A DNA stretch of 32,000 bases, from assembly GCA_000166095.1 (NCBI GenBank), contig CP002278.1, forward strand, positions 630,001 to 662,000. Direction: 5' to 3'. Of this stretch, positions 11,961 to 25,983 are shown in pieces; position 1 is the stretch's first letter; every line of letters starts with the position of its first letter. The position numbers and the translations under genes are program-made. Under the pieces are notes generated by a model. It had not been told where the DNA came from. It made no database searches and saw only the letters and a list, made by a program, of their open reading frames with translations. Origin of the DNA: Methanothermus fervidus DSM 2088 (GTDB taxonomy: Archaea > Methanobacteriota > Methanobacteria > DSM-2088 > Methanothermaceae).

Positions 11961-12638
11961 TTACGATTTCTTTACTAGTTTAGCTTCTTCTATTCTTAGA
12001 ATTCCATGATAATTAAACCATTCTTTTTTTGCTTTAACAATTTTTATTTTCTTTTTAAATATAGGACAATCTAAAACTAAAGTCTCAGCTTCTCCTCCTT
12101 CAAAAGCTATATGTATTCCATATTTTTTATTAAGTTCTAAAATATCTTCTAATGTTTTATAATTTAATTCTTTTCCTAGCCACGATTTATCAAAACCTTC
12201 TGCAGAAACAGAAGTTATAATAACTTTAAAATTTCTTTTTATTATTTTTTCCATGTAATCTAAAGGATCTACCTGCCAGAAAGGTGCTTTAGCTTTGATA
12301 CCTAAGCGTTTACATACTTTATATACCCTTGACCTTTGGTAATTTGATTCTAGCCCTCCAAAATATAATACGTCAATGTCTAATTTTTTTAAAGCTTTCT
12401 CTAAATCTTTTACTTCTTTTTCTTTTTCTCCTTTTGTTTTTACTTGTATTAGAGGAATTCCAACAGCTTTTGACGATAATTTAGTTAATTCAATGTTTGG
12501 AACATGAAACATGTATGATTCTGGATTTTCTGGGAATACAGAAATAAGATATTTTACTTCTTCAGTTTTAGATTTTAAAGCTTCATATAGAGCCATGGTA
12601 CTATCCTTACCACCTGAATACAATACTCCTGCTTTCAT
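11961..12638 (-). CDS. dph6: Diphthine--ammonia ligase (PP-loop ATPase, MJ0570/Dph6 family)
   Basis: 225-aa ORF with the N-terminal PP-loop motif VLYSGGKDS. Size and layout are typical of archaeal Dph6. Confidence 0.8.
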   Translation of the reverse strand: MKAGVLYSGGKDSTMALYEALKSKTEEVKYLISVFPENPESYMFHVPNIELTKLSSKAVGIPLIQVKTKGEKEKEVKDLEKALKKLDIDVLYFGGLESNYQRSRVYKVCKRLGIKAKAPFWQVDPLDYMEKIIKRNFKVIITSVSAEGFDKSWLGKELNYKTLEDILELNKKYGIHIAFEGGEAETLVLDCPIFKKKIKIVKAKKEWFNYHGILRIEEAKLVKKS

Positions 12639-13414
12639 TTTACTTTAATTCTCCTAACAGTTCTTATTATTGCATCTGAAAAAATTCCAGCAATTGCAAC
12701 TAAAATACCTAAAATTCCTGAAAATAAAACAATCTGTGATTTTGGTGGCATCATAGATTTCACATTTTTAACCTTTTCTTCAACCGGTCCATGGATTCCT
12801 GTAACTATAACATTTTCAGCTGATAACATGTCCAAAACATTGTCAACTTTTGATGCATCAACAGTAATGCATGCATTCACTCTACTAGATTTTGTATATA
12901 TGCCTCCTGTATAAATTAGCCAGTCAGATATTTTTTTTGTTATATTGTTTGGATCTCCACCTTCAGTTTTAATGATGATTTTGCCATTTGAATATACTTG
13001 CCAATCTTTTATATGAGGATCTAAATATTTTAATTTGCTTTCTATAAATTGTTTTCTTTGTTGTGAGAATGGGTCGGTATGCATTATAATCCCTGTTGTA
13101 GAAATATTATGTACTCCTGGTGTGGATTTGATTTTTGAAACAATTGAACCTATATCTACACCAGTAGGTATTTCTACCGTTATAGTTTCAGTTGCATGTA
13201 TTGTGTATTGATAATAGCCCCGTACTAATGATGGAATGTCTGTATAAATAGGTAGTAGTAGGAAAGCACCTCCAACACAACCTAAAATAAAGCTTGTAAT
13301 AAATGCAAATATGATGTTTTTCTTTGAATATGGTATTAGAGAAGCTACTGAAAAAATGAAAAGCATCAACAGAATGTAAATTATAATTATCAATGTTGTA
13401 ATCAATATGTTCAT
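12635..13414 (-). CDS. Membrane protein, 2 N-terminal TM + ~160-aa extracytoplasmic domain + C-terminal TM; function unknown
   Basis: 259-aa ORF. Hydrophobic segments at approximately residues 3-28, 33-57 and 228-250. SD GGAGG upstream. 4-nt ATGA overlap with dph6. Confidence 0.6.
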   Translation of the reverse strand: MNILITTLIIIIYILLMLFIFSVASLIPYSKKNIIFAFITSFILGCVGGAFLLLPIYTDIPSLVRGYYQYTIHATETITVEIPTGVDIGSIVSKIKSTPGVHNISTTGIIMHTDPFSQQRKQFIESKLKYLDPHIKDWQVYSNGKIIIKTEGGDPNNITKKISDWLIYTGGIYTKSSRVNACITVDASKVDNVLDMLSAENVIVTGIHGPVEEKVKNVKSMMPPKSQIVLFSGILGILVAIAGIFSDAIIRTVRRIKVK

Positions 13415-13425
13415 TGTTTACCTCC

Positions 13426-13824
13426 TTAACTAATCTTTGTGAAAATTATTTTATCGCTATTTTGATCATATATTATTTCCCATGTCTCACCTGGATTCAT
13501 GCTAGTAGGTGAAATTAAGTTTGAGTTTTCAGGTATAATATCTATTTTTGTAATGTTGTTGACATAAACACCAGTATCATTTACAGTTATTGTGTAGTTT
13601 CCATCCGGTAATGTGATATTAACCATGTAGCCAGGTCCATTAGTGTACACTAAATTTATGGTTTCAGCTACTTTTTCTCCTGCCATCCTGGCTATACCTG
13701 TTTTACTTACTTCAGTACTATTTAATTCTGAATTTATGAAATATCCTATTCCAGAAATAATTATAGTTGCAATAAGTATGGTTAGAATTATATCTCCACT
13801 TAACACTTCACCTTTTTCATCCAT
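13426..13824 (-). CDS. Small type IV pilin-like protein (class III signal peptide)
   Basis: 132-aa ORF. Start MDEKG|EVLSGDIILTILIATIIISGIGYFI (K-G then hydrophobic helix, Asp at +6). Shares the VYxNGPG motif with the 150-aa ORF at 18966-19418. 5 N-x-S/T sequons. Confidence 0.7.
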   Translation of the reverse strand: MDEKGEVLSGDIILTILIATIIISGIGYFINSELNSTEVSKTGIARMAGEKVAETINLVYTNGPGYMVNITLPDGNYTITVNDTGVYVNNITKIDIIPENSNLISPTSMNPGETWEIIYDQNSDKIIFTKIS

Positions 13825-13836
13825 AGCTAATTCTCC

Positions 13837-15003
13837 TTAAGGTAATCCTAGGTGTTTAAAGTAATTTTTATAATTTGAGGATAAACAAAAAACATAACCA
13901 TAGGGATCATATACATAACGGTATCCTGGTGGAAGCAAACCTGAAGGTAAAAGGAAAAATCTAACATTTGCATCGTTGTCATATGCTACTCCAAAACCTA
14001 ACACTCCATTAAAGTATTCATGATCTATTTTTGAAATAGCGGGGGATGAATCAATTTGTATAACTCCTGGTTTACTTTTATAATCGAGAGGATCACCTAA
14101 AATAAATGTACTTATTCTACCTTTACCATTAGGGCATGTTTTATTTTCTAATCTATCAAAAAATGATAAACCCTGAGGATCATAGAAATAATAAGGTCTT
14201 GATCTATTCAATAAGTTACTTGGGTTATTTGTTCCATTTAAATAATCCCAAAGATGCTGTAATTTGCCTGCACTATCCACATAATCATCAAAATGATAGT
14301 CACTTATGATCATTCCTCCAGGGCCAAAATAGCTAGAATAGTAAGGACTACGCCAGATGACATTACTTTGCCTACATTTAGTGTTTATCCAAATATAAGG
14401 ATCATCTAATCCTTCAATAGAGACATACACATCTATAGGTTCTGTATATCCTTCAAATGCTTGATTTTGTTGCACAACTTTAATTTTTGCAGAAGGGATG
14501 TGTACATAAAAACCAAAAGGTTCAGAGTCTGTTTGATAAATATAAACATCGTTAATATCAAAAACAGCTTGTGTATAATTATCTACAAGTATATCGTTAA
14601 TATATATTTGCCTTCCAGTTTCATTTTCTAATTTTCTACATAAATCTATAGTTCCGTTGTTTAGTGCATTAACAATCAATTTCCTAACATATAAAACACT
14701 ATTATCGGTACTTGTATCATTATAATAACTACGTGGCTGGAAAAATCGTCGTTCGTCTATAACTTTACGAGTAGCATTATAAGCCGCATTACGACCTGCA
14801 TCTTTCACAGCTTTTTGTAAATAAGATTGTATATTATCAGCTACTTTTATAGTTACGTCTCCGCCAATTGCTATAGCTATAATTCTATTAGCTTCATCAA
14901 CTATATGACCATACGCAACAGCTAATAATATGATTGGTATAAGTATTAGAACTGCAAGTGGTGTAAAGGCATATCCTCTATTATCCAAAATTAATCCCTC
15001 CAA
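13837..15003 (-). CDS. Pilin-like protein with class III-type signal peptide, large globular domain of unknown family
   Basis: 388-aa ORF. Start MEGLILDNRG|YAFTPLAVLILIPIILLAVAYG. About 8 N-x-S/T sequons. Overlaps the upstream gene by 13 nt. Confidence 0.6.
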   Translation of the reverse strand: MEGLILDNRGYAFTPLAVLILIPIILLAVAYGHIVDEANRIIAIAIGGDVTIKVADNIQSYLQKAVKDAGRNAAYNATRKVIDERRFFQPRSYYNDTSTDNSVLYVRKLIVNALNNGTIDLCRKLENETGRQIYINDILVDNYTQAVFDINDVYIYQTDSEPFGFYVHIPSAKIKVVQQNQAFEGYTEPIDVYVSIEGLDDPYIWINTKCRQSNVIWRSPYYSSYFGPGGMIISDYHFDDYVDSAGKLQHLWDYLNGTNNPSNLLNRSRPYYFYDPQGLSFFDRLENKTCPNGKGRISTFILGDPLDYKSKPGVIQIDSSPAISKIDHEYFNGVLGFGVAYDNDANVRFFLLPSGLLPPGYRYVYDPYGYVFCLSSNYKNYFKHLGLP

Positions 15004-17027
15004 AGATCTAATCTTACAGGGATAGCATTAGGTAAATTTCCAGTGTATAAAGCTTCTGCCTGTATAGCGTTTGGATCCACATTATACCCTGCACTTTGAA
15101 GTTTTTGTATTAAATTTTGTTTTGCATTTTCTATGGCTCCACTTGCAGTTTCATTAAATGATGTTGCCCATACGTGAGTAAATGTCGTATATATCACAGC
15201 AACCCTAGTACCTGAAAATATCTCAGCATAATTATCTCCAGATTCCCATCCCCGACTTGGACCATAAACTGTAACCCTAACATAGTAATCTCCTGGATTA
15301 CAGGTGTAATTGTCAGGGGTTCCACCACTTGTCAATATATTGTAGTTATTTTGCCTATCTATTGAACCAAGATCTATTGCAAACTGTGGCATGCCATCAT
15401 AGTATAGTTTGTATTGACCAGTTTTTGGATCTTTAACTTCAACAGTTACTCTCTTTGTATCTAAACCAACTCCCATGAATAGGTATATTCTCTTTGCATC
15501 CTGACCAACAGATATCAACCTTTCTTGTGTATTTATATTAGTATCGCTTTGATAGCTATTAAATGGGAAATTCAGCCATTTAACTCCAAGTGAACTATAA
15601 GATACTGAGACATATGAATTCACAAGTCCTACAAAATCATAATCTCCGCCTGGAGCATAATCCCATATAGTTACACGTACCCTATTGTTAACTCCTGCCT
15701 TGAGCTTATCTCCAATATAAATAATCCCTGGTAAATTACCATATCCATCTCCTACTGCACTATAACTTGTTCCATTGTAATTAAAAGAACAGAATACTAC
15801 CTGCCACCCTTCACCATTATTAACTTCAACAACTGCACCATCAACAGATCCATATGGATTTAAGACAACATAGGCATCATGAACTGTTACATTACTAGGT
15901 ATTGGGACATCTGTAACACTGCAGACAGCAGATCCTTCAGTTGTGGAAGAAGGAATATCTCTAAGTCTAAAGACTTGATTTTCTGCATTTGGATTATCCT
16001 TACCTATCAAATCATTCCAGGATATTGTTAATGCTGGAGCAGAAGTTAATTTCCCAGTATTTAAGTCAAAGAAATATCTACTTGTTGGAGCTCCAATACC
16101 AGCTAAATCTTGCAATGGAAATGTTTGAAATGTTACAGTCTTTGGGACTTTTATTGTTGTTGTGTAATTTGCAATCAATGAGAACCATGGCATGTCATAC
16201 GAATATGAACTCATATTTAAAAAAGCAACATAAAATGAATTGTTACCAGGTATTAAGCGAGTTGCATTTCCATAATACATGTAGAAATACCATATATTGG
16301 AATAGTAAAGATATTTAAACGCTGATTTATATGCATAATTATTTTGACCATTTAAAACTAAATTTGCAGAAAATCTGTCATTATTATTACAAGCACTACC
16401 AATAATCCATTTAACAGAGTTTATGGTTGTATTTTGTGGGAGTGAACAATTTATTGGAACTGGTCTTTTCCACCTATCACAACCCCAATAAGGATAGTTA
16501 TAAAGCCCTCCATATCTCCAAGGATTAAAATTAGTAAGCCAGTTATGGAAATTCCAAACTGTTGTTGTAGTATTAATCTGTTTATCTTCAAAAGGAACTT
16601 CTGGAATATAATACCATGCTCTTCCTAACCAACCTTCCTGTGGAGCAGAAACAACCTTAACTCTTGATGCAACATCCTTATGTACTAAACCAGGGATATC
16701 CTTACGAGCAACTTCATGACCATCTATCAAAAATCTATATCCAATATCAGGATATAAAGTCTCATTAAGCTTAGTTCCTATAATATACCCTGCTCCTGTG
16801 ACATTGCCATTACTATACTTAACAGCTGCAGTTATTAAGCTTCCATCTTGTTCTAGAATATTTAATGTGTCTGCTGCTATATCACTCAAACGTTGCTGAT
16901 CACTGCCTATGTATTCAGGTAAAACATAATAATTGAGGATTGAAGTTAGAAATATAAAGACAATTGTAAGAGCAATAATTGAATCAGTTGTAAATATTAA
17001 GCCTTTTTCATCCAACATTGACACCAT
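14991..17027 (-). CDS. Large pilin-like / putative surface-exposed protein with class III-type signal peptide
   Basis: 678-aa ORF. Start MVSMLDEKG|LIFTTDSIIALTIVFIFLTSIL. 13 N-x-S/T sequons counted by hand. Y/W/N/G-rich and poor in K/E compared with neighbouring cytoplasmic proteins. Confidence 0.65.
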   Translation of the reverse strand: MVSMLDEKGLIFTTDSIIALTIVFIFLTSILNYYVLPEYIGSDQQRLSDIAADTLNILEQDGSLITAAVKYSNGNVTGAGYIIGTKLNETLYPDIGYRFLIDGHEVARKDIPGLVHKDVASRVKVVSAPQEGWLGRAWYYIPEVPFEDKQINTTTTVWNFHNWLTNFNPWRYGGLYNYPYWGCDRWKRPVPINCSLPQNTTINSVKWIIGSACNNNDRFSANLVLNGQNNYAYKSAFKYLYYSNIWYFYMYYGNATRLIPGNNSFYVAFLNMSSYSYDMPWFSLIANYTTTIKVPKTVTFQTFPLQDLAGIGAPTSRYFFDLNTGKLTSAPALTISWNDLIGKDNPNAENQVFRLRDIPSSTTEGSAVCSVTDVPIPSNVTVHDAYVVLNPYGSVDGAVVEVNNGEGWQVVFCSFNYNGTSYSAVGDGYGNLPGIIYIGDKLKAGVNNRVRVTIWDYAPGGDYDFVGLVNSYVSVSYSSLGVKWLNFPFNSYQSDTNINTQERLISVGQDAKRIYLFMGVGLDTKRVTVEVKDPKTGQYKLYYDGMPQFAIDLGSIDRQNNYNILTSGGTPDNYTCNPGDYYVRVTVYGPSRGWESGDNYAEIFSGTRVAVIYTTFTHVWATSFNETASGAIENAKQNLIQKLQSAGYNVDPNAIQAEALYTGNLPNAIPVRLDLWRD

Positions 17028-17035
17028 ATTTATTT

Positions 17036-17884
17036 TTAATGTTTAGGCCATACAAACAATTCTAGTCTTGCATTTACTTCTTCAATATACTCTAACTTAA
17101 TCATATTTTTTTCAGTGCCCTTTGGAACTTTTACAATGTAAAAATCCATGGTAGCATTTTTCGTTGCATCTAAAGTGTTTATAATAACTGAATTGGAACC
17201 GCTTTTTAAATAAGTGCTATTTATCTGCACTGGCGTATCGTTGAGATTTGTCTTATCTACAACTATATGACCATTAATATGGACCATAACATTAGTATAT
17301 CCATTATTCTTAATTAATATCCAATAATCATAATTATTTAATTCTGTATCAGAAATTGTGAAATATGTTATATATGGTTCTGGGGCTCCTTTCCATCTAA
17401 TAACATTAACTAGTGAGACTACAACATCTATTGGATATCTATTTACTCGTACTTCTCTTTCAACACGGTAAATATTAGGTACATTACTTGGAGGTGATCC
17501 TAAATCTCTAATAACTGTATTGTTATGATCTACAACCCTCAAATAAAAATCATATTGTGATCCCAGCATATTTTGCACTTGTTCTTTTCTTAGTGCAAAT
17601 AATTTAAAACTTGATAAATGATTTTTTTCAACCACATTATTTCTTACAATTGCTAAACCAGGGATTCCTTGTCCAGTTAAATACCAATCTGGTGGTCTTC
17701 CAGGAGTTTCGACTAATGCATCTGCAACATTGGTTGCTGCTCTATCAATGGATGCATGAAACACTGTTAATTGAGAAAGATAAAATAAATTATCCATAGC
17801 TACAGTTGCCATGCCAAAAATTATTGTCAGTGGTATTAAAGCCAATAATAAATCACTACTTAATACAATGCCTCTTTCTTCCAT
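17036..17884 (-). CDS. Pilin-like protein with class III-type signal peptide
   Basis: 282-aa ORF. Start MEERG|IVLSSDLLLALIPLTIIFGMATVAM. First gene of the cluster. No SD upstream, and the TATA lies about 30 nt upstream of the ATG. Confidence 0.65.
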   Translation of the reverse strand: MEERGIVLSSDLLLALIPLTIIFGMATVAMDNLFYLSQLTVFHASIDRAATNVADALVETPGRPPDWYLTGQGIPGLAIVRNNVVEKNHLSSFKLFALRKEQVQNMLGSQYDFYLRVVDHNNTVIRDLGSPPSNVPNIYRVEREVRVNRYPIDVVVSLVNVIRWKGAPEPYITYFTISDTELNNYDYWILIKNNGYTNVMVHINGHIVVDKTNLNDTPVQINSTYLKSGSNSVIINTLDATKNATMDFYIVKVPKGTEKNMIKLEYIEEVNARLELFVWPKH

Positions 17885-18965: not shown

Positions 18966-19418
18966 TTATACCTTACTAATAGTAATGGATCCTCCTATTG
19001 GCCACTCAACAACAACTGTATTCCAACCTTTATTAAGTTGGATGGGAGGAACATTTGTGAGAGGAATATTTGTGAAATTATACTGAGTAAATGTTGTTAC
19101 ATTGTGAGGCCCGTCACTACATGTTACCTGTAATGTAACATTGTTTCCACTAACAGTTAAGTTTGTGGTATCAGGTACATAAACAGTGACAGTCCTTTTG
19201 GCTCCTGGACCATTTGAATAGACAACATCAAGTGCATGGGCAATCTCTTGAGCAGCTACCTTAGCATCCGATACTTTTGAAATGTCCATACTTGCATCTA
19301 TAGATTTTCCAATCATGGGGATCATCACATATACCAAAATAAAAAATAAAAGTGCTATAATAAGAATATATTCAACTGAGACTATTTGACCTTTTGAATT
19401 CATAAAATCGCCAACCAA
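18966..19418 (-). CDS. Type IV pilin-like protein (class III signal peptide, KGQ-type)
   Basis: 150-aa ORF. Start MVGDFMNSKG|QIVSVEYILIIALLFFILVYVMIP resembles the archaeal QxSxExxxL class III motif. Paralogous to the 132-aa ORF (VYSNGPG vs VYTNGPG). 4 sequons. Confidence 0.75.
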   Translation of the reverse strand: MVGDFMNSKGQIVSVEYILIIALLFFILVYVMIPMIGKSIDASMDISKVSDAKVAAQEIAHALDVVYSNGPGAKRTVTVYVPDTTNLTVSGNNVTLQVTCSDGPHNVTTFTQYNFTNIPLTNVPPIQLNKGWNTVVVEWPIGGSITISKV

Positions 19419-19419
19419 A

Positions 19420-20343
19420 TCATGTATATTCTTTTCTTTCCCTTACAAGTTTTAAAAGTTCAGCAGGAGTATCTATATCCTCAATTTCATATTGCCTAAT
19501 AACAGGGACTCCCTTAAGAGATTCCTTCACATTTTCACTTTTCATAATAAAAGCTGCAAGAGACCCTGCTACTAATGAAATATCTTTAAGTGAGGATGCC
19601 AATTTTAACAATCTACTTTCACTTCTATTCTTCTCTAAACCTGTGATCAATGTTTCGTTTCTTTTTTTACCAAAGTTTGCTAATGCATCAAAAGGTGTCC
19701 TTCCTGTTTTAATGAAACTAAATCTGGAAAATTTTATCTTGTTCTTATTTTCATACTTTAAATTTTCAGGGACTTGGAAAACATCTATTGAAAATGTTAT
19801 TTTACAACCTAAATATTTTTCTAGAGCTAAGGCAACATCAAGAGACATTCTCCCCAATCCTCTTTCATATTTATATATAGATTCTCTAGACACGTTTATA
19901 TGATCTGCAAGATCTTTTAAAGATAAACCAAGTTTTTCTCTAACCCTACGTAATTTTCTTCCATCAATGTTTACGTAATACCCGCCCCTATCTGCAAATA
20001 TCTCTGGATACTCTCCTTCAGCTATTATCCTTTTTAATGTATTAACACTTGATGCAGGAATTCCATATCTGGTATAAATCACGCCATCTTCTAAAGGTTT
20101 ATCTTTTGATCTTATACCAACCAAAAATGGTGAGGCTAGAAGGTTTGAAGCAACCTTTTTCATTTCATTAGCTTGTATTTCATTGAATGAATTTATATTT
20201 ACAAGTACTTTCAATAACAATAATAATAGTTCTTTCCGTGCTAAAAAATCGAAACAACTTCTTTCATATATTCTTGATACTTCAAAACCCTGGTCAATGA
20301 AAAAATTATACATGTCTTCGATAAGCTTTACTCTAGATTCCAT
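19420..20343 (-). CDS. Putative HTH-type (XRE-like) transcriptional regulator, archaeal COG1395-like
   Basis: 307-aa ORF with a central helix-turn-helix LSLKDLADHINVSRESIYKYERG. Its stop is 1 nt from the start of the pilin-like gene. Confidence 0.7.
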   Translation of the reverse strand: MESRVKLIEDMYNFFIDQGFEVSRIYERSCFDFLARKELLLLLLKVLVNINSFNEIQANEMKKVASNLLASPFLVGIRSKDKPLEDGVIYTRYGIPASSVNTLKRIIAEGEYPEIFADRGGYYVNIDGRKLRRVREKLGLSLKDLADHINVSRESIYKYERGLGRMSLDVALALEKYLGCKITFSIDVFQVPENLKYENKNKIKFSRFSFIKTGRTPFDALANFGKKRNETLITGLEKNRSESRLLKLASSLKDISLVAGSLAAFIMKSENVKESLKGVPVIRQYEIEDIDTPAELLKLVRERKEYT

Positions 20344-20363: not shown

Positions 20364-21614
20364 ATGCTTCATATAGGTATAGATGATACAGACTCCAGCA
20401 AAGGTATGTGCACTACCTATATAGCTTGTATACTTTATCATGAATTTAAAAGTTGCGGATTTGAAGTGATAGGTTATCCTAGATTGATAAGATTAAATCC
20501 TTTTGCACCACATAAAACCCGTGGAAATGGTGCCGTATCACTCAGAGTAAAAACAAAAAATGAAGAAAAAATTAAAAATAAAGTATTAAACACTGTTTCA
20601 AATTTAGCAGAACTTGAAGATGAAAACACAGATCCTGGAATTGTATTTTATAAAGGAAAAATAACTCCTGAAATGGAAAAATTTGCATTAAAAGCCATAA
20701 GAAAGATTGTTAGTTTAAATGAAGCTAAAAAATTAGCAAAAAAAGTTAATGCTGAAATTTATAAGTTTAAAAAAGGAAGAGGTATCATAGGAGCTCTTGC
20801 AGCAATCTCTTGTCCCCTAAAAGATAAAACTTATGAATTACTTGCATATCGAACACCAGAAAATTATGGTAAAGAAAGAAAAATAGATAGCAATTCTGTT
20901 TTTAAAATGGATAAATTATTTTATCCAAAAACATTTGACAATGTTGACAATGATAACATACTTATAACTCCAAATACACCATGTCCTGTTCTTTATGGTA
21001 TACGAGGTGAAACTCCTGAAGATGTTAGAGAGGCAAATAAAGTTGTTAAGTCAAGGGAACCTATTGAAAGGACATGTATTTTTGAAACAAACCAACACAC
21101 TGACCAACATATCCAAAAAGCAAAAAGAATAGCGGACATGAAGCAGTTTGAATCTTATGTTGTTATAGGGGAAGTAAAAGACGAACCAAAGGTTATTGAA
21201 GGAGGACATGTTTTTTTCACATTGAAAGATAGTTCTGGTGAAATTACTTGTGCAGCTTATGAACCTACAAAAGAATTTAGGAAAATTGTAATGAAATTAA
21301 AACCAGGAGACAAATTGAAAATATATGGAGGTATAGGTGTTCACAATACATTGAACATTGAAAAAATGAAAATATTAGAATTAGCACCTTTATATAAAAA
21401 ATTAAATCCACTATGTCCAAAATGTGGAAAAAGAATGAAGTCCGCTGGGAAAAATAAAGGTCTCAAATGTTTAAATTGTGGTAATAAAATCCCTTATGAA
21501 TATAAAATAATTAAGAAAATTCCTAGGAATATAAAGAAAAAATGGTATGAAGTTCCCCCTGCAGCAAGGCGTCATCTTTCTAAGCCGCTTATAAGGTGTA
21601 AAAATGATATCTAA
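20364..21614 (+). CDS. tiaS: tRNA(Ile2) 2-agmatinylcytidine synthetase
   Basis: 416-aa ORF. N-terminus HIGIDDTDSSKGMCTTY...YPRLIRLNPFAPHKTRGNGAVS matches the TiaS signature I recall. C-terminal CPKC...CLNC zinc ribbon. Confidence 0.88.
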   Translation: MLHIGIDDTDSSKGMCTTYIACILYHEFKSCGFEVIGYPRLIRLNPFAPHKTRGNGAVSLRVKTKNEEKIKNKVLNTVSNLAELEDENTDPGIVFYKGKITPEMEKFALKAIRKIVSLNEAKKLAKKVNAEIYKFKKGRGIIGALAAISCPLKDKTYELLAYRTPENYGKERKIDSNSVFKMDKLFYPKTFDNVDNDNILITPNTPCPVLYGIRGETPEDVREANKVVKSREPIERTCIFETNQHTDQHIQKAKRIADMKQFESYVVIGEVKDEPKVIEGGHVFFTLKDSSGEITCAAYEPTKEFRKIVMKLKPGDKLKIYGGIGVHNTLNIEKMKILELAPLYKKLNPLCPKCGKRMKSAGKNKGLKCLNCGNKIPYEYKIIKKIPRNIKKKWYEVPPAARRHLSKPLIRCKNDI

Positions 21615-22932
21615 AGATTTGGCTAATTTTATTAAAAAAATAAAATATTCAAAATTAAATAAAAATGTTGTTGATAAAGTTAAATGTTCTTTTTTGGATT
21701 TCTTTGGAGTTGCATTAAGAGGATCAAGAGAAAAAAGTGGAATCATAGCATTTAAAAGTTTATACAAGAAGGGAAAGAATTCAACTGTAATTGGTTATGG
21801 AAAAAGCGATGAAATGACTGCAAGCTTAATAAATGGCATATTTGCACATAATACAGATTTAGATGATGGTCACAGAAATGCATTGATGCATCCTGCATGT
21901 ACTGTAATACCAGCTGCACTGTCTCTTGCAGAAAAATACAATGTAATAGGTAAGAGATTTATAGAAGGCATTGTTTGTGGTTATGAAGTTGGCATTGCAA
22001 TTGGAATTTCTATAAATCCAGAACATAGGGAAAGAGGATTTCATACAACAGGCACATGTGGTGTATTTGCAGCCGCTGCAGCTGCATCAAAGGTTTTAAA
22101 CCTTAAAAAGAATGAAATAGTCAATGCCATCGGGTTGGCAGGTACTCAGGCATCTGGATTGTTAGAATCTGATCATGCTGGTACAATGGCAAAACATCTG
22201 CATGCAGGAAAAGCGGCTCAAAGTGGAGTAATATCAGCTATTTTAGCTAAAAATGGTTTTACTGGTGCAAAAACTATATTAGATGGAAAAGAAGGATTTT
22301 TCAATGCATATTCTACTTTAGATAAAATTTCAATAATAAAAAGAGAATTAGGTAAATTTCACATTAGAAACACTTATATGAAAAAATATCCTGTTTGTAG
22401 ACATCTTCATTCCACTTTAGATTCTGGAGAATCAATACTCAAAGAATTAGGAATTAAAAAATTAGATCCAAATAAAGTTAAAAAGATAATTGTAGAGACA
22501 TATGAGGTTGCAGCACAACATAATAATTACAGACCTAAAACTGTGGAAGCTGTTAGACAAAGCCTACCTGTTTCTTTAGCAATTCTTTTGTATAAAGGTG
22601 ATTTATCTTTAGAAAATTTAAAAGAATATGAAAGATTAGAGTCTGGAGTGAAAAAAATTATAGATAAAATTATAATAAAGGTAGATAAAAGTTTAGATGC
22701 AAACAAAAGACCATCAAAAGTTTGTATTGAATTTAAAAATAGAAAAATTGAAAAATTTACACCTATACCTAGAGGAGAACCAGAAAATCCCTTTTCAAAG
22801 GAAGATATATTGAAAAAATTCAAAAAATTGAATCCTGAATATCCAATAAAAAAATTAAAAATTATAGATGAGTTGGAAGATATTGAAGTTGGAGCCTTGA
22901 TGGAGGAATTGTCATGGAAGCAAGAGCAATAA
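21604..22932 (+). CDS. MmgE/PrpD-family protein (2-methylcitrate dehydratase/cis-aconitate decarboxylase superfamily); substrate unknown
   Basis: 442-aa ORF. Family-typical pattern ...FLDFFGVALRGS..., ...NGIFAHNTDLDDGHRNALMHPACTVIPAALSLAE..., ...GTQASGL...MAKHLHAGKAAQSG. Overlaps tiaS by 11 nt. SD AAGGTG upstream. Confidence 0.8.
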   Translation: MISKDLANFIKKIKYSKLNKNVVDKVKCSFLDFFGVALRGSREKSGIIAFKSLYKKGKNSTVIGYGKSDEMTASLINGIFAHNTDLDDGHRNALMHPACTVIPAALSLAEKYNVIGKRFIEGIVCGYEVGIAIGISINPEHRERGFHTTGTCGVFAAAAAASKVLNLKKNEIVNAIGLAGTQASGLLESDHAGTMAKHLHAGKAAQSGVISAILAKNGFTGAKTILDGKEGFFNAYSTLDKISIIKRELGKFHIRNTYMKKYPVCRHLHSTLDSGESILKELGIKKLDPNKVKKIIVETYEVAAQHNNYRPKTVEAVRQSLPVSLAILLYKGDLSLENLKEYERLESGVKKIIDKIIIKVDKSLDANKRPSKVCIEFKNRKIEKFTPIPRGEPENPFSKEDILKKFKKLNPEYPIKKLKIIDELEDIEVGALMEELSWKQEQ

Positions 22933-23810
22933 ATTTTCTTAAAAAAATAGGTATTAAATATGAATTTAAAAAATCTAACAAAAGATTTGAAGACGGATCT
23001 GAATATAGGTTTGAGGTTCCTGGAATACAAGGAGTGGAAGCTCTTGAAGCATTGATAGACGCTATAGATGAATATGATGTAACTGTTCATAGAGTCACTC
23101 AGACCAAGGGAATTATGATGCTCACTGATTCTGAGATAGAAAAAATGGCTGAATTGGCGTTGGAAGCTAAACTTGAATTGTTTTTAAGTGTGGGTCCACG
23201 AGCAACATATGATACAAGTGCAACAGTGCATACAAAAGAAGGAGCAAGAATTGGATATAGGTTAAGAGGTTATGAAAATTTAGTATATGCAATTGAAGAT
23301 GTAATGAGGGCCATTGATTTAGGTGTTAGAGGAATAGTTGTTTATGATGAAGGACTTCTCTGGGCATTGAATAAAATGAGAGAAAATGGTGACATACCAA
23401 AAGATGTACATTTTAAAGTATCAGCTCATTGTGGTCACGGTAATCCCGCATCTGCAATTTTACTTGAAAAAATAGGTGCAGACTCCTTTAACCCTGTGCG
23501 TGATTTGCAGATACATATGCTTGCTTCATTAAGGCAGGTAATAGATATACCTATAGATGTGCACACTGAAAATCCAAAATCTTCTGGTGGTTTTATAAGA
23601 CATTATGAAGTGCCTGATATGATTAAATTTTCAGCACCAGTATATCTTAAAACAGGAGGATCTGTAGCATTAACACATGCTTGGGAAACAACTAAAGATG
23701 AAGCAAAAAAAAGGGTAAAGCAAGTTTTACTTGTACAATCCATGATAGAGAGATACTATCCTGAAGCAAAGATTTCTAGTAAAAAACATTTGGCAATACC
23801 TTCACCTTAG
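22914..23810 (+). CDS. Conserved-looking hypothetical protein, possibly alpha/beta-barrel enzyme; no family recognised
   Basis: 298-aa ORF with normal cytoplasmic composition. SD GGAGGA lies 6-7 nt before the ATG. 19-nt overlap with the upstream gene and zero spacer to the downstream gene. Confidence 0.5.
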   Translation: MEARAINFLKKIGIKYEFKKSNKRFEDGSEYRFEVPGIQGVEALEALIDAIDEYDVTVHRVTQTKGIMMLTDSEIEKMAELALEAKLELFLSVGPRATYDTSATVHTKEGARIGYRLRGYENLVYAIEDVMRAIDLGVRGIVVYDEGLLWALNKMRENGDIPKDVHFKVSAHCGHGNPASAILLEKIGADSFNPVRDLQIHMLASLRQVIDIPIDVHTENPKSSGGFIRHYEVPDMIKFSAPVYLKTGGSVALTHAWETTKDEAKKRVKQVLLVQSMIERYYPEAKISSKKHLAIPSP

Positions 23811-24665
23811 GTGGTAATTTTGGACTTAGTTAAAAAAGTTAAAAAAGCTGTTATAAAATGTAGCACAGAATATAGTGAAGATCAAATAAAAGCTTATAAA
23901 AATGCCATAAAAAATGAAAACAATGAAAATGCTGTTTGGGTTCTTAAGTTACTCTTAAAAAATGCTAAAATTGCAAAAAAGAAAAGAAGACCACTTTGCG
24001 ATGATACAGGTATTCCCCATGTATATATAGAAATTGGCAAAAAATCAGAAATTTCTAGTACGTTTTTTCAAAAAATCAGGCGAGGCATAGCTGAAGGATT
24101 ACGTGAGCTTCCAGGACGCCCTATGGCCCTAAAAGGAAATGATATAGAAAGAATAGAACAAAGTAAAGGGATATATGAAGATCCTGGGAAAGTGGTTCCT
24201 CCTTCATTCTTCATAGATAACAATAAAGAAGAAAATGGAACAAAAATTCATATAATGATGTTAGGAGGTGGTCCAGAAATTAGAGCTAGAACTAAAAAAG
24301 TTTTCCATGAACATGATTACAGAAAAGTATTTAAAGAAGTAATTAGATGGATAATAGTAGAGGCTAAATCTCTAGGTTGTACACCTTGTGTACCCGCCAT
24401 AGGTATTGGAAGGACACATTATGAGGCAACATCGTTAATGCTCAAGGCAATTGCTCATGGTAAATTAGATCAGCAATCAGAACTAGAAGAATATATAACT
24501 AATTCTGTAAATTCTTCAGGAATAGGTCCTTTAGGTTTAGGAGGGTCCACCACTGCATTAGGAACTTTAATTAAAATAGGTCCACAAAGAGCCAGCGGTG
24601 TCAGAATCGTATCTACAAGATTATGTTGTTGTGTAGAACCAAGAAAATACACGATAACCATCTGA
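23811..24665 (+). CDS. Fe-S type hydro-lyase, alpha (catalytic N-terminal) subunit, class I fumarate hydratase/L-tartrate dehydratase family
   Basis: 284-aa ORF with family motifs PLCDDTGIPHV, MMLGGGPE, GCTPCVPAIGIGRTH, GIGPLGLGGSTTAL. The start is ambiguous: GTG 23811, or in-frame TTG 23820 preceded by AGGTGG. Confidence 0.8.
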   Translation: MVILDLVKKVKKAVIKCSTEYSEDQIKAYKNAIKNENNENAVWVLKLLLKNAKIAKKKRRPLCDDTGIPHVYIEIGKKSEISSTFFQKIRRGIAEGLRELPGRPMALKGNDIERIEQSKGIYEDPGKVVPPSFFIDNNKEENGTKIHIMMLGGGPEIRARTKKVFHEHDYRKVFKEVIRWIIVEAKSLGCTPCVPAIGIGRTHYEATSLMLKAIAHGKLDQQSELEEYITNSVNSSGIGPLGLGGSTTALGTLIKIGPQRASGVRIVSTRLCCCVEPRKYTITI

Positions 24666-24675
24666 GGTGAGTTTT

Positions 24676-25473
24676 ATGACAAAAATGCGGACAAAATGGA
24701 GAACATCAATTACTAAAATTGAACCAAACAAAATAATAATTAGAGGAATTCCAATAGAAAGACTCATTGGGAGTATAAGTTTCCCGGAAGTTGTATATTT
24801 ATTAATAAAGGGAAAATTACCTAGTGAAAAAGAGGCAAGAATGTTAGAAGCTGTATTAGTTTCATTTGCTGACCATGGAGTGACTCCACCTAGTACTCAA
24901 GTTTCAAGGATAATAGCATCAACAGGATCACCTGTCAATGCCTGTATTGCTGGTGGGCTATTAGCATTTGGTAAACATCATGCAGGAGCAATAGAACATG
25001 CCATGAAATTATTCCAAAATTCTGTTGAGTTATGTGATTCTGAAGATGATATACCTGAAGTTGCAAGGGATGTTGTAAATAAATATATTTCAAAAGGAAA
25101 GAAAATTCCTGGTTATGGTCATAGATTCCATAATGAGGATCCACGACCCGTAAGACTTTTTGAATTAGCAGAAGAACTTAATTTCAAAGGACCACATATG
25201 GTTTTTGCCCTTGAAGTTGAAAAAATCTTAAATGAATTAAAAAACATAAAAATGAATGTTGATGGAGCTTGTGCATCAATACTATCAGATCTTGGATTTG
25301 ATTGGAGAATTGGAGTAGGAATGTTTATGTTAGGTAGGTTACCAGGAATTATAGCCCATATTTATGAAGAACGTACAAAAGAACCTCCATTTAGGAAATT
25401 CTTTGATGTTGATGAAATTGAATATGAAGAAGAACAAATATTCAGACCTCCTAAGTTAAAAACACCTGAGTAA
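24676..25473 (+). CDS. Citrate synthase-superfamily short protein (citryl-CoA lyase-like)
   Basis: The ORF track starts at GTG 24667, but the ATG at 24676 is preceded by GAGGTGA at 5 nt, so I call that start (265 aa). Motifs WRTSIT, GKHHAGA (cf. HGGA), PGYGHRFHNEDPR, VDGACAS. The size fits CCL rather than a full citrate synthase. Confidence 0.75.
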   Translation: MTKMRTKWRTSITKIEPNKIIIRGIPIERLIGSISFPEVVYLLIKGKLPSEKEARMLEAVLVSFADHGVTPPSTQVSRIIASTGSPVNACIAGGLLAFGKHHAGAIEHAMKLFQNSVELCDSEDDIPEVARDVVNKYISKGKKIPGYGHRFHNEDPRPVRLFELAEELNFKGPHMVFALEVEKILNELKNIKMNVDGACASILSDLGFDWRIGVGMFMLGRLPGIIAHIYEERTKEPPFRKFFDVDEIEYEEEQIFRPPKLKTPE

Positions 25474-25983
25474 CTATTTATTTATTTTTTCCCAAAGAGT
25501 GCCATTATTGGTTTCATATCTTCTAGCATATCCTTCTCTTTCAAGAGCTTTTAATATATTTAACATGCTTTCAAATTTAAGTTCTTTAAATCCGACTTTT
25601 TTGACAAAATCATGCAATTCCTTAGCTGAGGCTTTTTTAGATGGTAATAAATGATATATTTGAGATTGAAAAGACGTAAGCCCGGGTTTAGGTTTAGATG
25701 TCAATGCTTCAATATATTTCTCAAGTTTTTTTAATTTTTTATCTTTTTTTGATAATTCTTCCTTCAAAACTTTAATTTTTTTATCTTTTTCTTGGATTAT
25801 ATTTTTTAAATTGATTATTTCTAAATTTTTATTTCTAATCTCTGCCTCATATCCTTCATTTTTTAATTTCTTTAGCTTATTCCGACATTTATTTAATTCT
25901 AATCTTAATTTAGAAATTTCTAATAAACATGACTTAACAAGTTTTTTTAATTCTTCTTTTTCTGAATCTTTAAATAGTCGCAT
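25474..25983 (-). CDS. Coiled-coil protein with C-terminal winged-helix-like domain; function unknown
   Basis: 169-aa ORF. Residues ~5-95 are K/E/L heptad-like (LKKLKNEGYEAEIRNKNLEIINLKNIIQEKDKKIKVLKEELSKKDKKLKKLEKYIEAL). The C-terminus ...SAKELHDFVKKVG...MLNILKALEREGYARR... looks like a wHTH. Confidence 0.55.
   Translation of the reverse strand: MRLFKDSEKEELKKLVKSCLLEISKLRLELNKCRNKLKKLKNEGYEAEIRNKNLEIINLKNIIQEKDKKIKVLKEELSKKDKKLKKLEKYIEALTSKPKPGLTSFQSQIYHLLPSKKASAKELHDFVKKVGFKELKFESMLNILKALEREGYARRYETNNGTLWEKINK
25477..25490 (+). terminator. Oligo-T tract TTTATTTATTTTTT immediately after the CCL-like stop
   Basis: Read directly. It lies inside the 3' end of the convergent minus-strand gene. 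Confidence 0.4.

Follow-up and report, generated by a model that had tools for sequence, protein, structure and literature searches.

A conserved four-gene operon in Methanothermus fervidus and other Methanobacteriales for a dedicated carboxylic-acid/CoA-ester pathway, with a core also found in gut bacteria

Introduction

The presence of an orphan citryl-CoA lyase (CCL), namely, one not accompanied by citryl-CoA synthetase, has been noted in Methanobacteria (preprint 10.1101/2022.10.25.513756). In the case of methanofuran, MfnA-F cover only the APMF-Glu core, with side chains varying between lineages (PMC11365854), while an older genome survey listed about seven methanofuran biosynthesis proteins as then still missing (PMC3087415).

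Considered here is a gene cluster of Methanothermus fervidus that includes such a CCL, found in the window (i.e., the whole 32,000-nucleotide stretch of DNA analyzed). A preliminary description had presented four genes of this region as a dedicated unit not explained by central metabolism and had raised the question of whether their orthologues were already biochemically assigned. A literature search revealed no publication assigning the cluster to a pathway.

Results

Examination of the region revealed five similarly oriented genes and two Shine-Dalgarno-like motifs, as follows:

20364..21614, plus strand: tiaS, tRNA-Ile2 agmatidine synthetase (Pfam TiaS domains match; NCBIfam NF040849, 525 bits against a cut-off of 600)
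21604..22932, plus strand: prpD, MmgE/PrpD-family protein, 442 aa (Pfam PF03972 and PF19305)
22902..22906, plus strand: GGAGG, Shine-Dalgarno-like, within the prpD 3' end, 7 nt ahead of the X start (read directly)
22914..23810, plus strand: protein X, 298 aa, predicted (beta/alpha)8 barrel, U32-related
23811..24665, plus strand: fumA, Fe-S hydro-lyase alpha with a Fumerase domain, 284 aa (Pfam PF05681)
24664..24669, plus strand: GAGGTG, Shine-Dalgarno-like, overlapping the fumA stop, 6 nt ahead of the ccl ATG at 24676 (read directly)
24667..25473, plus strand: ccl, citryl-CoA lyase-like protein (Citrate_synt; NCBIfam NF004866)

The placement of these ORFs was exactly as first described. All four cluster junctions are tight, with each containing a Shine-Dalgarno-like motif. 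Direct reading of the sequence confirmed the 11-nt overlap of tiaS and prpD, where AGGTG (21594-21598) precedes the ATG at 21604, as well as the 19-nt overlap of prpD and X, where GGAGG lies upstream of the X start, the ATG at 22914. The X stop codon (TAG, 23808-23810) directly abuts a GTG at 23811; however, an in-frame TTG at 23820, with AGGTGG (23809-23814) upstream, is an equally good fumA start, such that this junction, previously given as 0 nt, measures either 0 or 9 nt. Likewise, the 10-nt Shine-Dalgarno-containing spacer reported between fumA and ccl, where the fumA stop (TGA, 24663-24665) falls within GAGGTG (24664-24669), holds if ccl starts at the ATG at 24676, which is likely, and shrinks to 1 nt if the GTG at 24667 is used. 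The four plus-strand genes spanning 21604-25473 were in this manner shown to form a co-translated operon.

Eighty related loci of other species were next compared for conservation of gene order. The complete order tiaS-prpD-X-fumA-ccl was observed in 51 loci and in two more with prpD split into two ORFs, while another 10 contained prpD-X-fumA-ccl on a single strand. The four-gene order was thus seen in approximately 63 of the 80 loci, nearly all from Methanobacteriales. Twelve of the other 17 presented a contiguous portion of the five-gene order, as loci cut off at the end of a contig would. Because the order recurs across these related loci, the linkage of the four genes is not a matter of chance, and the dedicated unit proposed earlier was indeed found to be conserved across Methanobacteriales, the only archaeal group among the loci retrieved with the cluster. 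tiaS lies upstream of the cluster in 60 of the 80 loci, with a median gap of 112 nt, and in Methanobrevibacter other genes are inserted between the two; tiaS is probably a syntenic neighbor and not a functional member of the cluster.

The family assignments made in the preliminary description were then addressed. For the PrpD-family protein, Pfam matches to the MmgE_PrpD_N/C domains confirmed the family, although PrpD equivalogs of NCBIfam scored far under their cut-off (34.8 vs. 575 bits). A search of the PDB refined the branch, returning Bacillus subtilis IRG1 (7bra; E 2e-44), iminodisuccinate (IDS) epimerase and cis-aconitate decarboxylases (CAD) as the closest relatives, as compared to 2-methylcitrate dehydratase at E 1.7e-6 at best. 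Judging from such matches, the protein belongs to an IRG1/IDS epimerase-like branch, rather than being a 2-methylcitrate dehydratase.

The citryl-CoA lyase-like assignment was upheld by a score of 400 bits against the NCBIfam citryl-CoA lyase subfamily NF004866 (cut-off 245) and by a PDB match to the Hydrogenobacter citryl-CoA lyase (6hxp; E 1.9e-67), of which the M. fervidus protein is a close relative. It presents a citrate-synthase fold lacking the N-terminal part and is an orphan, with no citryl-CoA synthetase partner. All 66 orthologues compared share D69, H70, H152, R153, R160, D199, R224 and H231, these including the catalytic His/His/Asp and the Arg residues. As the three cluster-ligand cysteines of the hydro-lyase alpha (C63, C190 and C273) are also invariant, in this case in 75 orthologues, these residues count for the predicted catalytic competence of both proteins.

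The hydro-lyase alpha matched the Fumerase family of Pfam, as had been proposed, and scored 131.7 bits against fumarate hydratase NF004885 (cut-off 276), sharing approximately 30% identity with Methanocaldococcus jannaschii fumarase alpha (7xky). Methanobacteriales possess a separate, canonical fumarase alpha that shares 57-61% identity with its M. jannaschii counterpart. In the case of Methanobacterium sp. ACI-7, the chromosome carrying the cluster also encodes this canonical protein, elsewhere and beside por genes; identity is 61% to M. jannaschii fumarase alpha, as compared to 29% to the cluster paralogue. By these comparisons, the cluster protein is a paralogue and not the housekeeping fumarase, in agreement with the claim that central metabolism does not explain the cluster. 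None of the archaeal loci yielded a hydro-lyase beta subunit; in Archaea, this subunit must be encoded away from the cluster.

Protein X, originally deemed unassignable, indeed reached the threshold of no family in Pfam or NCBIfam. Still, it could be placed, since relatives of X gave weak U32 matches (12 of 12 and 25 of 30) and the AlphaFold model is a confident TIM barrel (pLDDT 93.5) with the U32 protein Mk0906 as top Foldseek match (E 5.5e-8). Class II aldolases and 2-methylisocitrate lyases (PrpB) came next, at a TM of 0.44-0.52, a level generic to TIM barrels, such that describing X as a C-C lyase is a guess. X contains no conserved cysteine, while Glu, Asp, Lys, Arg and His are conserved at strand ends. 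X is thus a distant, cysteine-less (beta/alpha)8-barrel relative of peptidase family U32, representing a new enzyme family. With identities of 66-76% across Methanobacteriales and 62-64% to bacterial copies, X is also the most conserved cluster member. The genes adjoining a 55% identical X encode a PrpD-family protein, a DHDPS-family aldolase and the tricarboxylate transporter TctABC; those adjoining more distant relatives encode aminotransferases or sugar-acid dehydratases. As enzymes of the latter two types produce 2-oxo acids, such neighbors support a link of X to these compounds.

As reflected in the bacterial copies of X, the core of the cluster is not specific to methanogens. X and the hydro-lyase alpha (48-51% identity) recur in polysaccharide/capsule loci of gut bacteria, namely, gut Firmicutes and one contig (L084) with Bacteroidales-like flanking genes. 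There, within loci encoding Wzz, Wzy, flippase and glycosyltransferases, the order is ATP-grasp (one or two genes), PrpD, aldo-keto reductase (AKR), ThDP decarboxylase, X, PF15617 CitE-like lyase, Fumerase_C and Fumerase. Whereas the archaeal cluster encodes a CCL of the citrate-synthase fold, the bacterial modules rely on a non-homologous CitE-like TIM-barrel lyase, which shows weak similarity to both CitE and RipC, the latter a lyase of itaconate degradation; they also include the hydro-lyase beta subunit absent from the archaeal cluster. The ThDP decarboxylase scored 408.8 bits against the phosphonopyruvate decarboxylase equivalog (cut-off 312.5). In one locus (L073), a D-2-hydroxyacid dehydrogenase replaces the decarboxylase and AKR pair, and the locus gains two CoA-transferase subunits along with an SSF symporter. 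In either variant, tailoring starts from a 2-oxo acid. Among the bacterial modules, the PrpD-family protein is only 25-37% identical, as compared to 83-87% for X, and so diverges far faster than its partners, a pattern more readily expected of a partner that sets specificity, or of one that is not orthologous, than of an unchanging dehydratase step.

Discussion

The cluster is shown to be an operon for a dedicated carboxylic-acid/CoA-ester pathway. As to which pathway, we tentatively favor, at a probability of roughly 0.35, a methylcitrate-cycle-like module yielding a 2-oxo acid. Here, the components would correspond one-to-one to those of the methylcitrate cycle, with CCL corresponding to PrpC, the PrpD-family protein to PrpD, the [4Fe-4S] hydro-lyase to aconitase and the X barrel to a PrpB/isocitrate-lyase-type C-C lyase. 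CCL, serving as a non-hydrolyzing Claisen-type lyase/synthase, would join acetyl-CoA or a substituted acyl-CoA to oxaloacetate, yielding a citryl-CoA-like adduct that would be dehydrated and then rehydrated with the hydroxyl moved, before being cleaved or rearranged by X to give a 2-oxo carboxylic acid. Members of the PrpD/IRG1 family abstract an alpha-proton next to a carboxylate in polycarboxylates, and in this way dehydrate, decarboxylate or epimerize them. The net effect would be alpha-carbon oxidation of R-CH2-CO-SCoA to R-CO-COOH, where what R is, in which order the steps proceed and what X catalyzes are all inferred. Because CCL does not hydrolyze the thioester, such a route needs an additional thioesterase or CoA-transferase, or else enzymes that accept CoA esters; that none of these is encoded within the archaeal cluster counts against it. 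The same is true of the greater proximity of the PrpD-family protein to decarboxylases and epimerases than to dehydratases, of its fast divergence, of the failure to find a hydro-lyase beta subunit in the archaeal loci and of the placement of X in the U32 superfamily, whose characterized members, UbiU/UbiV, RlhA and TrhP, are anaerobic hydroxylases and not lyases.

The closeness of the PrpD-family protein to IRG1-type proteins and cis-aconitate decarboxylases, the existence of mesaconases among class I Fe-S hydro-lyases and the weak similarity of the bacterial lyase to CitE and RipC could also be accommodated by an itaconate/mesaconate/citramalate-type route through C5-branched acids, as had been suggested speculatively in the preliminary description. 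Here, CCL would provide a citrate-type adduct and the hydro-lyase an aconitate-type ene-acid, which the IRG1-like protein would decarboxylate in the manner of cis-aconitate decarboxylase, with X converting the product. We consider this doubtful, given that the published CAD active-site set is only partly kept in our reading of the alignment, that B. subtilis IRG1 is itself without established CAD function, that the PrpD partner varies strongly from one module to another and that a decarboxylated C5 ene-acid offers no simple path to the 2-oxo acid implied by bacterial tailoring. Rather unlikely is the other earlier suggestion, assembly of the methanofuran tail, 1,3,4,6-hexanetetracarboxylate (HTCA). 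In this scheme, a dicarboxylyl-CoA would undergo Claisen condensation with a 2-oxo-dicarboxylate, after which the PrpD-like protein would dehydrate the product and the Fe-S hydro-lyase would rehydrate it to the hydroxy-HTCA of methanofuran-c, with HTCA itself being formed upon further reduction. HTCA-type methanofurans were reportedly described in Methanobacteriales by White in 1988, the order to which the cluster is restricted among the archaeal loci retrieved, the chemistry is suitable and the amide linkage of the tail finds a parallel in the ATP-grasp ligases that the bacterial modules encode. Moreover, MfnA-F explain only the APMF-Glu core (PMC11365854), with about seven biosynthesis proteins missing in the older survey (PMC3087415). 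However, the relatedness of CCL to a genuine citryl-CoA lyase, together with its invariant oxaloacetate-type catalytic and Arg residues, suggests acetyl-CoA and oxaloacetate, not glutaryl-CoA and 2-oxoglutarate, as substrates, and the archaeal cluster contains neither a reductase nor a ligase. A methanofuran-specific role is further weakened by the occurrence of the X and hydro-lyase core in gut Firmicutes and contig L084; we know of no methanofuran in such bacteria.

Ordinary central metabolism, with a fumarase alpha and a citrate-synthase-like enzyme serving incomplete TCA branches in chance synteny, would agree with the Pfam and NCBIfam names (fumarate hydratase; citrate synthase/citryl-CoA lyase) and with the need of Methanobacteriales for a fumarase. 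It is very improbable, having been largely refuted by the canonical alpha encoded elsewhere (29% identical to the paralogue in ACI-7), the sub-cut-off fumarase score, the X and alpha pairs in capsule loci and the lack of a citryl-CoA synthetase partner. Least probable of all is a route to phosphonates (or sulfonates) that does without PEP mutase, in which a phosphonopyruvate-like 2-oxo acid would come from X and be trapped in bacteria by the adjacent phosphonopyruvate decarboxylase and in methanogens by condensation with acetyl-CoA and subsequent isomerization, as in phosphonomethylmalate pathways. There is precedent for TCA-like enzymes using phosphonates as substrates, e.g., in the HiVir/pantaphos cluster, the above-threshold ThDP enzyme is encoded directly beside X, and the dehydrogenase swap in L073 is one that we take to mirror the phosphonolactate branch of valinophos-type pathways. 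No PEP mutase domain was found within +/-10 kb, although pepM may sit elsewhere in the bacterial genomes. Against this route, X resembles PEP mutase only in having a TIM fold, ATP-grasp ligases require a carboxylate that hydroxyethylphosphonate does not offer, two phosphonopyruvate sinks per module are not parsimonious and, to our knowledge, no phosphonate has been reported from Methanobacteriales.

Returning to the methylcitrate-cycle-like module, the 2-oxo acid would, in gut bacteria, be either decarboxylated by the phosphonopyruvate-decarboxylase-type ThDP enzyme and then reduced by the aldo-keto reductase, or reduced by the D-2-hydroxyacid dehydrogenase, after which ATP-grasp ligases would couple the product to a capsule sugar. 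In Methanobacteriales, of which prpD-X-fumA-ccl is shown to be a fixed feature with a core found in bacteria as well, the product would go into a lineage-specific constituent.

Gene layout and neighborhood

In the ORF table, tiaS is followed on the same strand by the four genes of the cluster:

20364-21614, plus strand, tiaS
21604-22932, plus strand, PrpD-family gene (prpD)
22914-23810, plus strand, ORF encoding a protein of 298 residues, here termed X
23811-24665, plus strand, Fumerase-alpha gene (fumA)
24667-25473, plus strand, citryl-CoA-lyase-like gene (ccl)

X matches a protein of the Methanothermus fervidus DSM 2088 genome at 100% identity, which identifies that genome as the origin of the window.

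Direct reading of the sequence revealed tiaS and prpD to overlap by 11 nt, with AGGTG lying 5 nt ahead of the prpD ATG, and prpD and X to overlap by 19 nt, with GGAGG lying 7 nt ahead of the X ATG. The GTG at 23811 directly follows the stop codon of X; fumA might instead begin at TTG 23820, which is in frame and has AGGTGG ahead of it. At the last junction, GAGGTG overlaps the fumA stop and is found 6 nt ahead of a ccl ATG at 24676. The junctions having been read directly, the tightly joined layout given in the preliminary description is therefore accurate, with fumA and ccl each having alternative start codons. Its family calls were likewise borne out, Pfam and NCBIfam returning MmgE/PrpD N and C, Fumerase and Citrate_synt, and the 298-aa protein that it had deemed unassignable indeed belongs to no Pfam or NCBIfam family. 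A scan for bacterial-type promoters and terminators is uninformative for an archaeon.

On the minus strand, a lysine-rich ORF of 169 aa at 25474-25983 terminates exactly one base past the ccl stop codon. Its Pfam and NCBIfam matches are weak and involve coiled-coil families of the SMC, Fez1 and fibrinogen types, such that the product is probably a coiled-coil protein. The two genes are convergent with zero spacing, so that a terminator would not fit in between. At the other end, a gene of 307 aa on the minus strand (19420-20343) is divergent from tiaS (start at 20364), with 20 nt separating the start codons. In 52 other loci of Methanobacteriales, a member of the same family precedes tiaS, and the homolog in locus L002 has an HTH (XRE-type) domain. 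The minus strand between 12635 and 19418 holds seven consecutive ORFs, of 259, 132, 388, 678, 282, 262 and 150 aa; a Pfam scan, which covered only the initial five, returned no match. The N-terminus of the 150-aa product (18966-19418) resembles an archaeal class III (pilin-like) signal peptide, and the run may correspond to a surface-structure gene cluster.

Conservation in Methanobacteriales

Scanning one genome per species yielded at least 583 loci containing relatives of the cluster, the best 80 of which were analyzed, with gene order being assigned by tblastn and ORF clustering. The order tiaS-prpD-X-fumA-ccl on one strand was seen in 51 of these best 80 loci, while two more present the same order, including tiaS, with prpD split into two ORFs, and another 10 contain prpD-X-fumA-ccl without tiaS. 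The linkage first noted in M. fervidus is hence widely retained, with the four genes being found together in order in 63 of the best 80 of at least 583 loci. A contiguous part of the order is present in 12 of the 17 other loci, as would be expected if contig ends had cut the cluster short. The genera carrying the cluster include Methanobacterium, Methanothermobacter and Methanobrevibacter. Even the 1.24-Mb M. fervidus genome has kept the operon, as have the loci retrieved from Methanobacteriales in general, among them numerous Methanobrevibacter MAGs of gut and rumen origin. One contig labelled as a Methanomicrobiales archaeon (JBNGDB010000015.1, L005) contains a Methanobacteriales-type tiaS-prpD-X-fumA-ccl array encoding an X that is 70% identical, which probably reflects an error in taxonomic labelling or in binning.

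Gaps within the cluster are generally short (medians of 52, 60 and 10 nt), and the gap to tiaS has a median of 112 nt. In Methanobrevibacter, DUF3100 genes are inserted between tiaS and prpD, and in most genomes an A1A0 ATPase operon lies downstream of ccl. Given the distance and insertions on the tiaS side and the ATPase operon on the other, the functional unit is taken to be the four genes. The conserved downstream genes, being those of the A1A0 ATPase operon, were accordingly dismissed as pathway members and reflect synteny only.

In two Methanobrevibacter loci (L062, 4088-5398; L063, 2584-5488), the insert comprises one or two genes for DUF3100 membrane proteins, each paired in L063 with a 163-aa protein belonging to no Pfam family; the insert may encode a transporter tied to the pathway. 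A nitroreductase-family gene follows ccl. In a few contigs of termite-gut Methanobrevibacter and of Methanovirga, X appears without an adjacent prpD; the QRPTase and Fpg-like genes that flank X in the termite-gut Methanobrevibacter were considered as pathway members and judged unrelated.

The citryl-CoA-lyase-like protein

The product of ccl belongs by sequence to the curated NCBIfam citryl-CoA lyase (CCL) subfamily NF004866 (400 bits; cut-off, 245) and matches Hydrogenobacter citryl-CoA lyase (6hxp_A) with an E-value of 1.9e-67 over residues 9-254. Among 66 orthologs, no variation occurs at D69/H70, H152/R153, R160, D199, R224 or H231, nor in the DHG, GxGHR, DPR and NxD motifs and the Arg and His beyond them. 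Judging by motif, we take these residues to serve in catalysis and oxaloacetate binding. The protein is a close relative of the lyase of the Hydrogenobacter thermophilus citryl-CoA synthetase (CCS)/CCL pair, with catalytic residues kept, yet its neighbors are a PrpD-like protein, X and a Fumerase, with no CCS in the cluster or its flanks. Indeed, no succinyl-CoA-synthetase-like gene was detected within 7 kb on either side in the best 80 of at least 583 loci, leaving the cluster CCL without the CCS partner of citrate cleavage. To our knowledge, Methanobacteria do not run the reductive TCA cycle. Methanobacteria have been reported to contain CCL but neither CCS nor ACL (preprint 10.1101/2022.10.25.513756).

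The Fe-S hydro-lyase alpha subunit

The fumA product contains a Fumerase domain (PF05681, E 1.9e-57) in which C63, C190 and C273, the expected cluster-ligand cysteines, are retained without exception across 75 sequences. It thus shares the alpha domain and three conserved Cys of the class I fumarase/L-tartrate dehydratase/mesaconase family, but shares about 30% identity with the alpha subunit of the M. jannaschii fumarase, lies below the fumarate hydratase equivalog NF004885 (131.7 bits vs. 276) and also below the NCBIfam tartrate-dehydratase equivalog cut-off, coexists with a canonical alpha subunit, and has no adjacent beta subunit. Canonical alpha subunits were sought with a 242-aa fragment of the M. 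jannaschii protein rebuilt from a PDB alignment, and those of Methanobacteriales proved to be 57-61% identical to that fragment. In Methanobacterium sp. ACI-7, the canonical alpha gene is found on the same chromosome as the cluster (L041), the two alpha subunits being 29% identical, from which it follows that the cluster protein is a dedicated paralog. A role as the housekeeping fumarase was rejected on the same grounds, together with the NF004885 score. Plain central metabolism as the purpose of the cluster is essentially refuted by the presence of this separate canonical alpha subunit in Methanobacteriales, in keeping with the original claim that textbook central metabolism does not explain the cluster.

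In that genome, the canonical gene lies beside pyruvate:ferredoxin oxidoreductase genes; in Methanobacterium locus L100 (1249-6840) it is about 1 kb downstream of porCDAB-porEF, with one minus-strand ORF between, and there likewise no beta subunit adjoins it. Beyond the cluster, scanning of the window covered positions 9214-17884, and neither there nor in any archaeal locus retrieved was a beta subunit (Fumerase_C) detected; one would presumably be encoded elsewhere or shared. In the bacterial modules described below, Fumerase_C adjoins the alpha subunit.

The PrpD-family protein

Both MmgE/PrpD domains are present in the prpD product (N-terminal, PF03972, E 9e-68; C-terminal, PF19305, E 6e-23), placing it in the superfamily. 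It falls far below the 2-methylcitrate dehydratase equivalogs (NF006943, 34.8 bits vs. 575; TIGR02330, 32.8 vs. 458), scores that led to its rejection as PrpD proper, and 2-methylcitrate dehydratase appeared in a PDB search with an E-value of 1.7e-6 at best. The nearest solved relatives are Bacillus subtilis IRG1 (E 2e-44), iminodisuccinate (IDS) epimerase and cis-aconitate decarboxylases (CAD). These all act on polycarboxylates, but identity is about 30%, the genomic context differs, and the function of B. subtilis IRG1 is itself uncertain. The active-site set of human CAD comprises Asp93, Thr97, His103, His159, Lys207, Lys272, His277 and Tyr318. When motifs were compared by eye, the His, Lys and Asp equivalents appeared to be kept, and those of Thr97, His277 and Tyr318 to be changed.

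Protein X

Identity among X proteins is 66-76% across Methanobacteriales genera and 62-64% between bacterial copies and that of M. fervidus. Relatives of X match Pfam Peptidase_U32 weakly in 12 of 12 close and 25 of 30 distant cases, the best with an E-value of 7.7e-8 (PF01136) and none at the gathering score; X of M. fervidus itself scored 12.9 bits against PF01136, below the gathering cut-off of 22.4 that defines membership. An AlphaFold model based on an alignment of 40 sequences presents a (beta/alpha)8 barrel (pLDDT 93.5; pTM 0.91) and was used in place of an earlier model from 12 close sequences (pLDDT 70), which gave generic fold matches. Of the PDB entries compared by Foldseek, the U32 protein Mk0906 ranked first (5d88; E 5.5e-8; TM 0.42/0.50; 213 columns). 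As such, X resembles a solved U32 fold, its best structural match agreeing with Pfam matches that are weak but consistent. The next matches, to class II aldolases and 2-methylisocitrate lyases, are at the level of generic barrels (TM about 0.45-0.5).

Residues conserved throughout the wide family are E34, R139, D145, K168, S170, N177, R207, D215, R229 and K246, the majority of which are located in, or directly following, predicted beta-strands of the model. The single Cys of X, C173, is Thr in several orthologs and no invariant column contains Cys. Since this sole Cys is not conserved, the Fe-S site of U32 hydroxylases is absent from X. The U32-family proteins UbiU/UbiV, RlhA and TrhP are anaerobic hydroxylases. 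Whereas such hydroxylases serve RNA or quinone pathways, X lies below the Pfam threshold, has no conserved Cys and has carboxylic-acid enzymes as its genomic partners. The reading of X as a peptidase or U32 Fe-S hydroxylase was hence set aside as unsupported, given its sub-threshold Pfam scores, the lack of a conserved Cys and contexts that all concern small-molecule metabolism. Membership in the ICL/PEP-mutase superfamily was rejected for want of sequence or specific structural support, as a profile search of the PDB with X returned no match to PrpB, ICL or PepM and Foldseek aligned PrpB with TM values of 0.44-0.48, on a par with unrelated barrels. An SAHCGHG stretch of X resembles the KKCGH loop of ICL, but its Cys is not conserved and the likeness is taken to be coincidental.

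An exhaustive search assigned 795 representative clusters at 50% identity to the X family, which is accordingly a sizeable, undescribed one. An X relative of 55% identity is encoded in the order GntR, X, TctCBA (tricarboxylate transporter), PrpD-family protein and DHDPS-family aldolase. Relatives of 38-43% identity (loci L086/L087 and L089) repeatedly adjoin hydantoinase/oxoprolinase A and B, with a class IV aminotransferase nearby, which points to a second, different conserved pathway using the family. Other distant relatives lie beside amidohydrolases and creatininase or beside HpcH, TauD and asparagine synthase; that of Thermomicrobium roseum is accompanied by a sugar ABC transporter, an enolase-superfamily dehydratase and a lactonase; and some occur in natural-product-like clusters. 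None of these contexts suggests a peptidase, and several adjoin makers or users of 2-oxo acids.

Bacterial modules

Three of the best 80 of at least 583 loci are bacterial, their X proteins being 64-65% identical to that of M. fervidus, and use of a bacterial X as query revealed a family that is very abundant in gut metagenomes, with members 82-94% identical. There, X is part of a stereotyped module comprising one or two ATP-grasp ligases, a PrpD-family protein, an aldo-keto reductase, a ThDP enzyme, X, a PF15617 CitE-like C-C lyase, Fumerase_C and Fumerase. The module sits within loci encoding Wzz, Wzy, a flippase, an initiating transferase, a DegT aminotransferase and glycosyltransferases. 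Within these glycan loci, the bacterial version is linked with ligases that form amides and with tailoring enzymes whose specificity is for 2-oxo acids. The ThDP enzyme (e.g., L083, 8857-9984, among L081-L085; L077, 5815-6981) exceeds the phosphonopyruvate decarboxylase (Ppd) equivalog TIGR03297 (408.8 bits vs. 312.5). In another bacterial locus (L073), a D-2-hydroxyacid dehydrogenase replaces the decarboxylase and reductase, with two CoA-transferase subunits and a sodium:solute symporter added.

Identity of module proteins among bacterial modules and to M. fervidus
X: 83-87% among bacterial modules; 62-64% to M. fervidus (L083, L084, L073 and the window compared)
Fumerase alpha: 65-73% among bacterial modules; 48-51% to M. 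fervidus
PrpD-family protein: 25-37% among bacterial modules; 29% to M. fervidus

The Claisen enzymes of the two domains are not homologous, with a citrate-synthase fold in Archaea and a CitE-like barrel in Bacteria. The uneven conservation, together with these non-homologous Claisen enzymes, identifies X and the Fe-S hydro-lyase as the module's invariant heart. The PrpD-family partner may have been recruited independently, or its step may be the one that sets specificity.

A methylcitrate-cycle-like route and its alternatives

The cluster is a dedicated, conserved, cross-domain set of enzymes for carboxylic acids and CoA esters, distinct from the enzymes of the TCA branch, and its citryl-CoA-lyase-type enzyme and Fe-S hydro-lyase are predicted from sequence to be competent. 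By analogy, it would parallel the methylcitrate cycle (prpC, prpD, acn, prpB), all four kinds of catalyst being matched: the Claisen enzyme would correspond to PrpC, the PrpD-family protein to PrpD, the Fe-S hydro-lyase to aconitase and X, likewise a TIM barrel of roughly 300 aa, to PrpB. In such a route, an acyl-CoA and oxaloacetate would be joined into a citryl-CoA-like adduct, the adduct would be dehydrated to an ene-acid, the ene-acid would be rehydrated to an iso-hydroxy acid, and X, in the putative PrpB-like step, would cleave or rearrange the latter to yield a 2-oxo acid. Because the product of the methylcitrate cycle is a 2-oxo acid, which is also what the tailoring enzymes of the related bacterial modules act on, this route is favored, with a probability of roughly 0.35. 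It differs from the methylcitrate cycle in each catalyst, however. The Claisen enzyme is a non-hydrolyzing CCL, and that the thioester is left unhydrolyzed is a weak point of the model. A second is the PrpD-like protein, which fails the PrpD equivalogs, belongs to the IRG1/IDS-epimerase branch with its decarboxylase/epimerase affinities, and diverges fast. Moreover, the hydro-lyase is of the fumarase rather than the aconitase type, and the X barrel is U32-like and outside the ICL/PEP-mutase superfamily.

That same IRG1 affinity would suit an itaconate/mesaconate-type route, which is nonetheless considered unlikely given its mismatch with the 2-oxo-acid tailoring. Synthesis of the 1,3,4,6-hexanetetracarboxylate (HTCA) tail of methanofuran is compatible with the chemistry and with the distribution seen among archaea, and the methanofuran core is all that MfnA-F account for (PMC11365854), but high-identity copies in bacteria and the oxaloacetate type of the CCL render it distinctly improbable. 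A phosphonate route independent of PEP mutase would draw on the decarboxylase that passes the phosphonopyruvate decarboxylase equivalog, and the bacterial modules do resemble early phosphonate biosynthesis (PepM and Ppd) in that a ThDP enzyme at Ppd threshold is followed by a reductase. Yet no PEP mutase domain was found among the genes called within 10 kb on either side in L081-L085, and a decarboxylase is missing altogether from the archaeal cluster, such that this route is very improbable. For the gut capsule loci with such a ThDP enzyme, either pepM lies elsewhere in the genome or the Ppd annotation is wrong.

Beside the acyl-CoA plus oxaloacetate route, a broader and quite tentative reading is that X represents a new enzyme class in the U32 superfamily and, with the dedicated Fe-S hydro-lyase, the invariant heart of a cross-domain pathway to an undescribed acidic building block, from which Methanobacteriales (the methanogens dominant in the human gut among them) would build a constituent specific to their lineage, for instance the polycarboxylate tail of methanofuran, and with which abundant gut bacteria would decorate their capsules. 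In its extreme version, the product, if this were true, would be a phosphonate made without PEP mutase.

Significance

A literature search returned nothing pertinent on the cluster or its combinations, on PF15617, on HTCA biosynthesis or on the MTH locus tags. The families of the cluster are known except for X, which is an enzyme family without assigned function. X is very abundant in gut metagenomes, yet has no assigned function, Pfam family or solved structure. The public annotation of phosphonopyruvate decarboxylase in gut capsule loci may mislead, and the bacterial version predicts that common gut bacteria decorate their capsules with an acyl or hydroxy-acid group not yet described. In methanogens, the pathway could fill a remaining gap in cofactor or cell-envelope biosynthesis and, if essential and lineage-specific in Methanobacteriales, would offer a candidate target for efforts to mitigate methane.
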